Shown: positions 51,337 through 56,327 of the stretch, piece by piece | Layout of the letters: every line of letters begins with the position of its first letter | Numbering within the stretch: position 1 is the stretch's first letter | Source: a virus | Taxonomy: Duplodnaviria; Caudoviricetes | DNA length: 64,000 nt | IMG/VR virus record: IMGVR_UViG_3300005686_000008 | Direction: 5' to 3' (one strand) | The notes under the pieces: generated by a model | What the model saw: the letters and a program-made list of their open reading frames with translations, nothing else | Database searches by the model: none | Told to the model about the DNA's origin: nothing | Position numbers and translations under genes: made by a program

Positions 51337-51410
51337 GCCCCCGTAAGCTCAATGGTAGAGTTAGGAGTCTCTAAAACTCTTTGTTGCAGGTTCGAGTCCT
51401 GCCGGGGGCG
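51337..51410 (+). tRNA. Amber suppressor tRNA (anticodon CTA)
   Basis: ggagt-CT-CTA-AA-actct; GCCCCCG/CGGGGGC acceptor; canonical D and T arms; G73. Confidence 0.85.
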
Positions 51411-52947: not shown

Positions 52948-53895
52948 ATGACAAAATATGATCTTTACAAAAGAAATGAAAAAATGATAAGGGAAGAATG
53001 GTTCAAAAACCATATTCCTGAGCTTGTCATTTTTCAAGATGATTTTATCAAAATCAAATGGAAAGAACCCGGTACATGGAATATGGCCGTTGTTTACTAC
53101 ATTGACTGTAAGATGGCTTATCTTATGGTTGCTGGTGATCTTGGAGAAGCAACTTATCAATGGTCAGCCCCGATTAGTCTTGATTTCGTCGGCGGATGCA
53201 ACTTAGATTACTTCAATGGCAAATGCAGAGCGAGTTCATGCGGAGAACGAGGCCAAGAGTGGAGTCAGGAAGTTGCAGAAGATTGGGTTCGTTCCTATAT
53301 TGAAGATCATACTCTTGGAGAAGATCAAGGCGATTCTATTTTCGAGTCTTTGTTTTCAGATGGATATGTTGAAGGTCTTCTCAAAGAAAAAGACCCAGAG
53401 ATTGCTCGCTTCTATACAGAAGAAGACTACAAGAGTTGGCGAGAGATTTCTAGAGAAGAAAAAAACAGGTTTATTGCGATTGCCAAAGAATATCTAAGCA
53501 ATCTTGCTAAGACTTCTGAGTGGAAGAAGTTTAGTAAGGTTGATTATCGCAGAGAACTCATTGAAAAGCAAGAAAAGTTTGAGGATTTAGGCCCTGACGC
53601 TATTGGCGCTTGCGAATCTGAGTTTTCTTGGCTTAGGTGGATAGGTGATAATGGATACGAGTTCTTTGGTGATGACTACTACGAGTTTGGAGATATTGGA
53701 CGCACCATATCTCTTCGGGTTCAATCTCACCTAATTGGACTAAAAATGATTCGCGAAGGTATACTTGCCGGCAAGTATATGAATCCTAGTACCAGATGTC
53801 CCTGGCTAAAGTTTTCGAATTGGTTCAGGGGGAAGTTCAAAAAAATCACAAAAATCCGTGGTCCCAGGCTAAACTTTCTGCGGAAAAGCCGATAG
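52948..53895 (+). CDS. Hypothetical phage protein
   Basis: 315-aa ORF with LMVAGDLGEA motif. Confidence 0.65.
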   Translation: MTKYDLYKRNEKMIREEWFKNHIPELVIFQDDFIKIKWKEPGTWNMAVVYYIDCKMAYLMVAGDLGEATYQWSAPISLDFVGGCNLDYFNGKCRASSCGERGQEWSQEVAEDWVRSYIEDHTLGEDQGDSIFESLFSDGYVEGLLKEKDPEIARFYTEEDYKSWREISREEKNRFIAIAKEYLSNLAKTSEWKKFSKVDYRRELIEKQEKFEDLGPDAIGACESEFSWLRWIGDNGYEFFGDDYYEFGDIGRTISLRVQSHLIGLKMIREGILAGKYMNPSTRCPWLKFSNWFRGKFKKITKIRGPRLNFLRKSR

Positions 53896-53904
53896 AGTAA
53901 GAGT

Positions 53905-54063
53905 AGAGTTGTTCGGAAAGTCTGGTATATGTCTCGTATAAACCCTTTTGAAGGCGGGGCAAGCCGCCGCCCGTAAGAGGGGTAGGGTGTAAAAGTACAC
54001 CACCTATGATCAGGGTGGAAGTTGGCTCCCAACCAGCGTTTACCAGATTTTTCGAACAACTCT
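53905..54063 (+). ncRNA. Unassigned structured RNA or leader upstream of the Pth gene
   Basis: ~23-bp closing stem AGAGTTGTTCGGAAAGTCTGGTA/TACCAGATTTTTCGAACAACTCT. Confidence 0.65.
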
Positions 54064-54081
54064 GCATAAAAGGAGTTCAAA

Positions 54082-55281
54082 ATGACGTAGGTACAAACAC
54101 AACCCGTATACTTGTATGTTCTCGTAAGGGAAGACCTTACACCCGTTTCTCAAGTCGCCGTTCAATCGGCGCATGCGGTTATTGAGGCCATTCGAACCTT
54201 TGCTCCCGGCTAGAACCAGGAACATCCGCATCTTGTTCTTCTTTCCGTGAAAAACGAAGAAGAGCTACTGAAGGCCCATGATCGCCTTCAGTATTTTGGC
54301 ATTCAGGTCGCCAAGTTCCAAGAACCTGATTTACTTCGCAAAATTGATACAAAACTTCTTGTAGACCGAAGTAATCCAGTTTCTAAACTGATCAATGGTC
54401 ATCGAGAGTTTAGCAATGTTGCAAGTTTTGCAACATGGAACACAATTTTCTTTGGTATACCCCAAAGAATTGTCAGTTCTATCAATTCCATTATAAACAA
54501 ACCCTCTTTTGCTAAATGGCTTAAGTATTGTTGCTGGTTTTTGACCACAGTATATGCAATCGCTTTGTGTAAGCCTCTTAATATCTTCAAAAGACAAATT
54601 AAAAGATTTGTTTCGTTCTTTTGCACTCTTCTTGTAACTAGCAAACAAAATATTGAAAGGTCCATCAGGATTCCTGATCGAAGTTTTCCAACTACATCCG
54701 CAATTATCGGAAATTCCGCTTCTGAGATTGTGTCCAGAAACAATTTTTTGAGTTCCGCAGGAACATTTACAAAGAAAATACCTACCTCTTCCAGTTATAT
54801 GAGAGGGGCGAGGAACTACAGAAATGACCTTCCATTTCCCGTAAACTTTGCCTGTTTCATCTTTTCCAGTGTTTTGAGTTTGACCAAGGCAGCCACAACT
54901 TTTACTTGTTCCATTGCGAAGACTCTTGCCCATTACCATACGTTGTGTTTTATTAGGACATTGGCATTCGCAAAAGAAAAACTTTGCACTAGAAACAATC
55001 CCTTCAGGTTTTTTGCCTTCAGAAATAACCTTCCATCTACCAAAGATACTACCAATAGGAATTTCAATTTTCATATCCCCTCCAATAAAGTAGTATCGAC
55101 TGTTTCTTCAATAAACAATAATTGCGATAGTTACGAAATAACAGCTATCGCTACGGAACCGCTTCCTGCGGACTCCAAGCTGCGCCGCAAGTTTAGTTGC
55201 TACAACCTTCTCAATTTAGATCCTGGCGAAACCTCTCAAAAAGAGACTGAGCTATCCCCTGCGCGAAAGGAAACTATATGA
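54082..55281 (+). CDS. PTH2-like peptidyl-tRNA hydrolase with in-frame TAG at codons 3 and 44 and an ~800-bp in-frame insertion
   Basis: AAGGAG SD; MT*VQTQPVYLYVLVREDL...QVAVQSAHAV...G*NQEHPHLVLLSVKNEEEL...FQEPDL [insert] YEITAIATEP. Confidence 0.8.
54331..55074 (-). CDS. HNH-type homing endonuclease inserted antisense in the Pth gene
   Basis: Two FGRWKV...CxCxC...SCGC modules; CIYCG...NGIDRTDNSLGYTKENCVPCCKTCNIAK; GGAGGGG SD. Confidence 0.9.
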   Translation of the reverse strand: MKIEIPIGSIFGRWKVISEGKKPEGIVSSAKFFFCECQCPNKTQRMVMGKSLRNGTSKSCGCLGQTQNTGKDETGKVYGKWKVISVVPRPSHITGRGRYFLCKCSCGTQKIVSGHNLRSGISDNCGCSWKTSIRNPDGPFNILFASYKKSAKERNKSFNLSFEDIKRLTQSDCIYCGQKPATILKPFSKRGFVYNGIDRTDNSLGYTKENCVPCCKTCNIAKLSMTIDQFRNWITSVYKKFCINFAK

Positions 55282-56327
55282 ACAGTTTTCCCGTCATTGT
55301 TATCAGCCATATTCAAGATTGCGAACTTGGAAGTTATTTCAGAGGCGAATGCGATTGGAGGCACTGCAAAAGCGCCAACATGGAAACGGGCATTTTCAAC
55401 TCTCTTGAAGATATTGCCAATCATATCGTAAAGCTTGACAGACAATTCTTTGATGAAGTTCAAAGAACTAACTTCTATAGCGAGTTTGAAGAAAAGATCG
55501 CCAGGAACATTACCAAAGAACACGACCCAAAGTTTGAATATTCTCACTTGATTATTTCCAAGAACAGTTTTTCTGATGATAACTTCGGTATCAGCGGAGA
55601 AAACGGGACCATTAATACTCCGACAGACTGGGAATACACGGATGAACTTCTGAAACTCGTTGTTCAGAAAAAGAAAACCGCAACAGCAAATAGGCTTGCA
55701 AATGAGGAGAAACAAAAGATAGAAAAGGAGCAAAAGCAAAAACAACAAGAACAGCAAGAGCAAGAAAGAATGCGTTTGTTAAATGAGGAGCATGATAAAC
55801 AAGAATATGCTCGTCTCAAGGAAAAGTACGAAAACAAGTAACCATTTTTAGAAAGGAAAACAGTTTATGACTACGACTCAGAATATTCAGAAGAACAAGT
55901 TCAATCAGGACGCTTATCAAAGCCGTTGGGGTTTCCATGCTTGCGATTACCAGACTTTCCTCAAGATTAAGAAGCTTTATGGCTTCTATTGGAAGGCTCT
56001 TCGTCGTAATGGCGAATGGAATCGCTGGAATAGGAAGGAGCCTCAAAATAGGATTCTTCGCAAGTGGTATCGTAATGCTCAGGGACAAAAGACTGGATAC
56101 GAGATTGTTGGGCCTAAGCCTGAACCTAAGCTGTATCCTGTTTTCGGTGCTTTGAATTATGTTCTTCAGGGAGACCATGCTCTGAAGGCTATGGGAGTTG
56201 TTGATGCTTACTTGACTGCAAGGCATCCTTATCCAACTGCCGAAGAGGTTCCTCAACTTGGATTGACAATTGAGCAGATCAACAATATGCTCGCTCATCT
56301 TGAAGAGTTTGAGGCTCAATAAATATA

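Follow-up and report, generated by a model that had tools for sequence, protein, structure and literature searches.

We analysed a 64,000-nucleotide (nt) stretch of phage DNA (IMG/VR record IMGVR_UViG_3300005686_000008; Duplodnaviria, Caudoviricetes), here called the window, which belongs to a 494-kb phage genome of 40% G+C. At one locus of the window, a gene for an HNH homing endonuclease lies in antisense orientation inside a PTH2-like gene, and the reading frame of the PTH2-like host gene stays open across the whole insert. An earlier reading of this DNA, made from the letters without database searches (the sequence-only reading), had described an antisense HNH gene that parts the host motifs FQEPDL and YEITAIATEP. 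This layout is borne out, with FQEPDL ending at 54333 and YEITAIATEP starting at 55132. Under translation table 11, the plus strand carries an open reading frame (ORF) of 344 codons (54247-55281), which encloses the whole of the 247-codon minus-strand ORF. When TAG is read as a residue, the plus-strand ORF grows to 399 codons, beginning with the ATG at 54082. The frame earlier described as stop-free through 55281 is thus open from 54247, or from 54082 if TAGs are read, as far as its closing TGA. The TAA stop of the HNH gene is the complement of a host leucine codon, TTA, at 54331-54333, and the two frames are codon-aligned, as had been noticed from the letters. The features of the locus are collected in Table 1.

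Table 1. Features at the interrupted PTH2-like locus (window positions; aa, amino acids)
Feature	Position	Strand	Evidence or remark
tRNA with CTA anticodon (amber suppressor)	51337..51410	+	ARAGORN and Rfam
Shine-Dalgarno sequence AAGGAG of the PTH2-like gene	54070..54075	+	6 nt before ATG 54082; read from sequence
PTH2 N-terminal part (PthN), 84 codons, ends ...FQEPDL	54082..54333	+	Pfam PTH2 E=4e-6
Inserted element, host-frame reading, ~265 sense codons, no TAA/TGA/TAG	54334..55128	+	~795 nt; right-hand limit uncertain by ~3 codons
HNH homing-endonuclease gene, 247 aa, codon-aligned with the host frame	54331..55074	-	PHROG HNH endonuclease E=1.5e-21
HNH leader, Shine-Dalgarno sequence GGAGG (complement of 55079-55083)	55075..55140	-	plus-strand reading: loop and start of exon 2
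PTH2 C-terminal part (PthC; ..SYEITAIATEPLPADSKLRRKFSCYNLL..), same frame as N-terminal part	55129..55281	+	stop TGA 55279-55281
Downstream gene, 187 aa, ATG overlapping the PTH2 stop (ATATGA)	55278..55841	+	ORF list, sequence

The assignment of the host gene to the PTH2 family comes from several comparisons. Residues 11-81 of the 399-aa product align with positions 3-81 of the 115 positions of Pfam PF01981 at 27.4 bits (cut-off 23). In a search of the whole genome the score was 24.8 bits, and no other PTH2 gene was found there. The 344-aa ORF of the standard code has no Pfam match; TAG has to be read as glutamine for the PTH2 match to appear. A profile of insert-free relatives matches the solved PTH2 structures 24bt (E=5e-6) and 2zv3, and PthC aligns with the C-terminus both of the insert-free relatives and of solved PTH2 structures. 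The family-invariant residues of PTH2 (Q, H, A, E-P-D and T..AT) are all kept in the two exons of the window.

Protein and contig searches brought up six further loci (L001, L004, L005, L006, L007 and L014) in which an HNH gene 50-87% identical to that of the window stands antisense in or at a PTH2-like gene. Together with the window these make the seven loci counted below, one of which (L007) is rearranged. At the insertion site, ~20 insert-free relatives of the host protein (99-133 aa) have the intact reading ...REPDxNNE(L/I)TAIATEP.... The element parts REPD(L) from (NN)E-TAIATEP, which are the best-conserved motifs of the family; homing targets typically lie at such places. In L007, the insert-free junction reads GAACCTGATTTA joined directly to AAACATCAATTAACTGCAATAGCAACAGAGCC. 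When solved PTH2 proteins are aligned, the canonical ones hold four extra residues precisely at the insertion point, which aligns with a loop of variable length and forms a turn between the last two strands in the model of an insert-free relative.

The minus-strand protein also matches the PHROG endonuclease VII family (7e-16) and has no Pfam match at E<=0.1. Its C-terminal 56 residues align with the beta-beta-alpha-metal core of PacI (PDB 3ldy; E=0.004), in the form CxYCG ... G(I/V)DRxD..GY..N...C..CN..K. Among six of the HNH sequences, CxxC...CxxC, GIDR.D, GY and N are invariant, and an HNH core with zinc-binding cysteines is therefore present. The likeness to PacI is weak and confined to this core. 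PacI is a restriction enzyme, whereas the PTH2-embedded protein carries two zinc-ribbon-like repeats at its N-terminus (GKWKV...YFLCECxC...SCGC) and occurs in a homing-type context. Across the related loci, the ratio of non-synonymous to synonymous substitutions (dN/dS) in the HNH frame is 0.15-0.28, which marks a working gene.

The HNH gene has translation signals of its own. Six of the seven loci show a clear complement of its Shine-Dalgarno sequence (CCTCC; CTCC in L006), and L007 a weaker one. A search for a sigma-70 consensus promoter of this gene gave none, and its promoter is only inferred. A leader stretch of ~25 nt within 55075-55125 (the complement of GTAGTATCGACTGTTTCTTCAAT) is conserved in the window, L001, L004, L005 and L014, and its conservation from the window to L005 persists despite saturated synonymous sites; it is absent in L006 and L007. 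This stretch may be the promoter or a regulatory site of the element. At the other end of the gene, a minus-strand hairpin at 54293-54266 scored as terminator-like, with a weak tail.

In the codon-aligned antisense register, only three HNH codons, TTA, CTA and TCA, can give rise to stops in the host frame. Each of these has synonyms, and so the stop-free state costs the nuclease no change in its protein. The HNH gene of the window holds 10 Leu and 24 Ser codons, the numbers that the sequence-only reading had estimated, and not one of them is TTA, CTA or TCA; the other two antisense frames of the gene hold 10 and 18 stops. In the genome, TTA and CTA account for 13% and 10% of Leu codons and TCA for 16% of Ser codons, and under this codon use the chance of finding none of the three in the window's HNH gene is ~1e-3. 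Among the genome's genes, 2.3% of 247-codon windows are without TTA and TCA, and some genes are wholly without them. Taken on its own, the window's gene is thus unusual, but not decisive.

It is the comparison between loci that carries the argument. All seven PTH2-embedded HNH copies are free of TTA, TCA and CTA, over 93 Leu and 134 Ser codons, and in all seven the host frame is open over the whole insert and its spacer. Because the genome has no HNH paralogue elsewhere, the codon test had to use relatives from other sources. Each of 31 other HNH-homologue loci (28 distinct, 26-48% identical, all in other contexts) holds between 4 and 31 of these codons. Relatives outside PTH2 thus do not share the avoidance; had they done so, this would have refuted the proposal, as the sequence-only reading itself had stated. 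Synonymous sites of the HNH genes are saturated in most pairs of lineages (synonymous differences, pS, 0.6-0.9), which makes the codon choices effectively independent. Over five lineages with saturated synonymous sites, the joint chance under the genome's own codon use is ~1e-14. Only the PTH2-embedded HNH clade avoids these stops, and it does not do so by chance. As CTA is avoided too, extra TAGs are not tolerated, though the host gene already holds two.

These numbers bear directly on the explanation by chance or general codon bias, according to which the PTH2 gene is dead and its open frame has no meaning. The TTA- and TCA-free stretches of the genome speak for this explanation, as do two in-frame TAG codons in the host gene and a frameshift in L005 (both taken up below). 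It is effectively refuted by the split between the embedded copies (seven of seven clean) and the others (none of 31) at saturated synonymous divergence. The TAGs, moreover, stand at identical positions, a CTA-anticodon tRNA is linked to the gene in three phages, and both exons are under purifying selection. We regard the chance explanation as having practically no probability.

Substitution patterns differ between the parts of the locus. Across the insert, the sense frame of the host has a dN/dS of 0.9-1.8, which indicates that the amino acid sequence of the predicted loop is unconstrained and that only stops are excluded. From the HNH start to TAIATEP runs a spacer that is not part of the HNH coding sequence; it measures 66, 69, 66, 66, 87, 81 and 66 nt in the seven loci, every length being a multiple of 3. 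In the window this 66-nt spacer is stop-free, in line with the earlier remark that the promoter segment is also open. Among interrupted alleles, PthN shows pS of 0.61-0.90 vs non-synonymous differences (pN) of 0.09-0.42; for PthC, the pair L005-L006 gives pS 0.92 vs pN 0.20 and the pair L001-L004 an omega of 0.15. These values indicate that both PTH2 exons are under purifying selection in the interrupted alleles. The predicted loop, in which S, F, N, T and I are frequent, is strongly basic (net charge +12 to +32) and contains no convincing or conserved transmembrane segment.

The insert could instead be removed from the host product, through self-splicing of an RNA that has escaped recognition or through ribosomal bypassing over a long range, leaving a mature PTH2 without a loop. 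In the window and in L001, each of the two junctions has a GAT codon, and these codons might serve for take-off and landing; unorthodox phage introns do exist, too, for example the intron of phage BAKA (cited in PMC11855218). Rfam at gathering thresholds returned no intron or other relevant RNA in the window. Specifically, 53850-55400 gave no match to Intron_gpI or Intron_gpII at E<=10, and five related loci gave none at E<=0.1. The HNH ORF fills 744 of the ~795 inserted nt, and the ~50 nt outside it leave no room for a ribozyme. At the protein level, the 399-aa product contains no Hint/intein domain, and PTH2 is its sole Pfam domain even at E<=1. The absence of group I, group II and intein motifs, first noted by eye, thus holds up in these searches.

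The junctions do not resemble those of inteins either. The first residues of the insert are L, R, L, P and P rather than C/S/T, and the downstream junctions (NNNCDSYE, SQEQNVYQ and FRNNEA) are unconserved and lack HN followed by C/S/T. The in-frame peptide, being unconserved (dN/dS ~1 or higher), cannot be a splicing enzyme. Bypassing by way of matched GAT codons was considered and rejected, as the pairing is not conserved in L005. Neither splicing nor bypassing needs an open frame, and so neither explains one; both leave the clade-specific avoidance of TTA, TCA and CTA and the multiple-of-3 indels without a reason. We know of no precedent for a ribosomal bypass of ~790 nt; the gap bypassed in T4 gene 60 is 50 nt. 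We consider removal of the insert very improbable. A translated loop of ~265 aa, which the sequence-only reading had offered as one of several options, is favoured by the clade-specific stop avoidance, the selection on the exons and the absence of a splicing signal.

Structure prediction is compatible with a folded enzyme that carries such a loop. In the AlphaFold2 model of the 399-aa product, residues 1-85 and ~350-380 are packed together as a PTH2 fold with a predicted local distance difference test (pLDDT) score of 74-97, the C-terminal part (pLDDT 89-96) lying against the N-terminal part. Residues 86-349 are of low confidence, with block means of pLDDT mostly <60 over 91-349. The insert-free PTH2 of L007 was modelled at pLDDT 91 and matches the archaeal PTH2 structures 3erj, 2zv3, 1wn2 and 1xty at template modelling (TM) scores of 0.72-0.76 and probability 1.0. 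The N- and C-terminal parts of the 399-aa model follow the same order of strands and helices at high pLDDT, so that a complete PTH2 alpha/beta fold is predicted for the interrupted protein.

The two TAG codons of the PTH2 gene, which the note made from the letters had not mentioned at this locus, are codon 3 (54088-54090) and codon 44 (54211-54213). The first is found at ~codons 3-5 across loci, and the second falls in a P-TAG-xxEHPH loop. Both are conserved in position in the window, L001, L005, L007 and L014; L006 keeps the second, and its contig begins past the position of the first. Genome-wide, the code is the standard one, with TAG terminating 88 of 658 long ORFs. Recoding of TAG throughout the genome was rejected, as ORF extensions past TAG are no longer than those past TAA or TGA. 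Because the genome uses TAG as a stop, the two TAGs of the PTH2 gene are a local feature, and an open host frame also depends on amber suppression. The window holds many tRNA genes, a tmRNA and a single CTA-anticodon tRNA (ARAGORN, Rfam). In three phages a CTA-anticodon tRNA lies 2-2.7 kb upstream of the PTH2 gene, namely in the window, L001 (1973-2049) and L014 (5133-5205). From this arrangement, the PTH2 gene looks like an amber-gated gene that is linked to its own suppressor tRNA. Several insert-free relatives have Q at both TAG positions and may also carry TAG there.

Identity along the related loci points to mobility. Between the window and L014 (on a 465-kb contig), the insert (54324-55109) is 83-91% identical, against 45-60% for the flanking genes. 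L001 comes from a closer phage, with flanks 65-87% identical to those of the window and an insert 65-74% identical. The PthC segment is nearly common to L001 and L014 (84-89%). A mosaic of this kind is the expected product of homing with co-conversion, and it indicates that the element has moved horizontally between distant phages. The spread is into a specific, conserved site, for which insert-free alleles exist. The idea of a homing element that survives by double-strand coding, put forward in the sequence-only reading, thus gains support from the comparative evidence and from the movement between distant phages.

One of the seven loci, L007, is rearranged (ena:ERZ27271245:k119_1237434, 1650-2683). 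It has an intact insert-free PTH2 gene at 2339-2683 on the minus strand, which shares 22 nt with the 3' end of an antisense HNH gene truncated to 179 aa. Beyond the HNH gene there is a second, diverged PthC copy (~1650-1745), in frame with the open frame antisense to HNH. The two PthC copies differ at ~35% of non-synonymous sites, and one of them was probably imported by recombination.

From these comparisons, we think it likely that the host translates straight through the antisense HNH element into a loop-bearing PTH2. A mobile HNH gene would have entered the only PTH2 gene between REPD and TAIATEP, in antisense direction and codon-aligned, and would be expressed from the minus strand by means of its own Shine-Dalgarno sequence and a presumed promoter of its own. 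The element would be removed neither from the host mRNA nor from the host protein. Ribosomes on the PTH2 mRNA would read the complement of the element, giving a 399-aa PTH2 with a basic, unstructured loop of ~265 aa in the surface turn between the last two beta-strands, where canonical PTH2 has its extra residues. Selection on PTH2 function would purge copies of the element that gain a stop in the host frame, and the HNH protein would cut insert-free PTH2 alleles of co-infecting relatives. With somewhat less assurance, we lean towards a wider view: that homing endonuclease genes lying antisense and codon-aligned in host genes make up a class of mobile elements of their own, one that does without RNA or protein splicing, that the host enzyme works with a ~265-aa junk loop beside its active site, and that this host is an amber-gated PTH2 with a linked suppressor tRNA.

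A number of observations weigh against translation into an active, loop-bearing enzyme. The phage is known from metagenomes only, and its host frame requires the suppression of two TAG codons. In L005 (ena:ERZ2854929 NODE_40, reverse strand), the N-terminal part of PTH2 has a 1-nt frameshift, where an extra base is seen at ..PQQA / VQSGHALIEA.. (~2800-2830 in PTH2 orientation). The rest of that gene, including the insert, stays open beyond the frameshift; at a coverage of ~7x, the extra base may come from the assembly, or it may mark the beginning of decay. The site of insertion is one residue past the Asp of EPD, which aligns with the aspartate of the canonical PTH2 DAG motif, a residue we take to be catalytic in Sulfolobus Pth2, and a 265-aa loop next to it might impair the enzyme. 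The conservation of the exons could partly stem from periods spent in insert-free genomes between homing events. In L007, finally, the leftover frame is open although an intact PTH2 gene precedes HNH, so that either the rearrangement is recent or something besides PTH2 function keeps the frame open.

The last point, together with the closeness of the insertion to the putative catalytic Asp, also favours the main rival explanation. Here the frame would be kept open for the transit of ribosomes (avoiding polarity or Rho termination) and for coupling to the downstream gene, and the loop-bearing PTH2 would be inactive. The ATATGA overlap at 55278-55281 suggests translational coupling of the PTH2 gene to the downstream gene, and an ATGA overlap of stop and start recurs in L001 and at the end of the leftover frame of L007. 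In L004, by contrast, the downstream start lies ~20-30 nt past the PTH2 stop, without overlap. Purifying selection on PthC at the amino acid level, at saturated synonymous sites, is unexpected if only transit mattered; this is, moreover, the sole PTH2 gene of its genome, with exons that keep every invariant residue of the family. We judge an inactive product maintained for transit or coupling to be unlikely, and prefer the translated, loop-bearing enzyme.

Some further observations concern the surroundings of the locus and other overlapping frames. Directly upstream of the PTH2 Shine-Dalgarno sequence is a G+C-rich, apparently structured stretch of ~160 nt (53900-54065), for which Rfam gave nothing even at E<=10. 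In the phage GenBank collection, the 6-kb region has no relative except for an 87-nt match to a 595-kb uncultured phage. At 55816-56319, a 167-codon minus-strand ORF mirrors a 151-codon plus-strand gene (55867-56322). Databases lend it no support, and its open frame is probably due to chance, which means that short codon-aligned open frames do occur by chance in this genome. As to further antisense nested genes in the genome, there are 20 open codon-aligned candidates; the six that were tested had no PHROG match and look like spurious ORFs antisense to long genes. In L008 (logan SRR13727527_75720, 757-2432), a 39%-identical HNH gene and an RlaP-family gene converge, sharing ~105 nt at their 3' ends; with 17 antisense stops, this HNH gene is not read through.

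The closest published case appears to be the ShiLan domain, an out-of-frame HNH hidden in the mycobacteriophage DNA methylase gp65 (Arsenault, Gosselin and Gogarten 2025, PMC11855218; Gosselin et al. 2023, PMC9957025). In both systems, an HNH ORF fills nearly all of an insertion between conserved residues of a phage gene, and this stop-free insertion, which the host would read, is neither an intron nor an intein and shows no feature of either. The two also share a patchy, homing-like distribution, a predicted product that loops out, and evidence that is wholly computational. They differ in that the ShiLan HNH lies on the same strand as its host gene, in another frame and with no recognisable ribosome-binding site, whereas the PTH2-embedded HNH is on the opposite strand, codon-aligned and equipped with its own Shine-Dalgarno sequence. 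The host gene is a methylase in actinophages in the one case and PTH2 in a 494-kb phage in the other. No antisense case is mentioned in PMC11855218, and the antisense form appears to be unpublished. Quantitative evidence for selection and for horizontal movement is a further contribution of the PTH2 case.

Other homing systems are more distant. Inteins with nested homing endonucleases likewise sit in frame at a highly conserved site near an active site, keep the host frame open and spread by homing. Unlike them, the PTH2 insert has no Hint domain, its peptide is unconserved and its endonuclease is encoded on the other strand. Reportedly, mobE in nrdA of Aeromonas phage Aeh1 (described by Friedrich et al. 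in 2007) is a free-standing homing endonuclease that splits its gene. That case resembles the present one in placing an HNH-family endonuclease in a coding gene without intron or intein while host function is retained; there, two polypeptides are made by way of a stop and restart, whereas one continuous polypeptide is predicted for PTH2. HNH group I introns in phage genes, such as that of I-HmuI in the SPO1 DNA polymerase gene and I-PfoP3I (PMC3428280), share with the PTH2 element an HNH gene in a conserved phage gene and horizontal movement with co-conversion of flanks. In the PTH2 insert, by contrast, the searches detected no ribozyme, and its ORF is antisense; introns, moreover, do not characteristically keep the host frame open.

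The usual view is that homing endonuclease genes can persist in an essential or conserved gene only where they are taken out with an intron or intein, or where the host gene is split into pieces that still work. The present locus offers strong comparative evidence for another solution, an antisense nuclease gene codon-aligned with a host gene whose translation would run through it; the trace of selection is that three synonymous codons are missing altogether. If this holds, one more way in which selfish elements coexist with host genes would be added to those known. It would also provide a natural case of long antisense overlapping coding, with 247 codons under two different constraints, and would show how large an unstructured insertion a small enzyme tolerates. 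The fused 399-aa product is absent from the called proteins of a database of 5.8 billion; gene callers keep the HNH gene and lose the host gene, and genes interrupted in this way are therefore systematically annotated as absent or broken.

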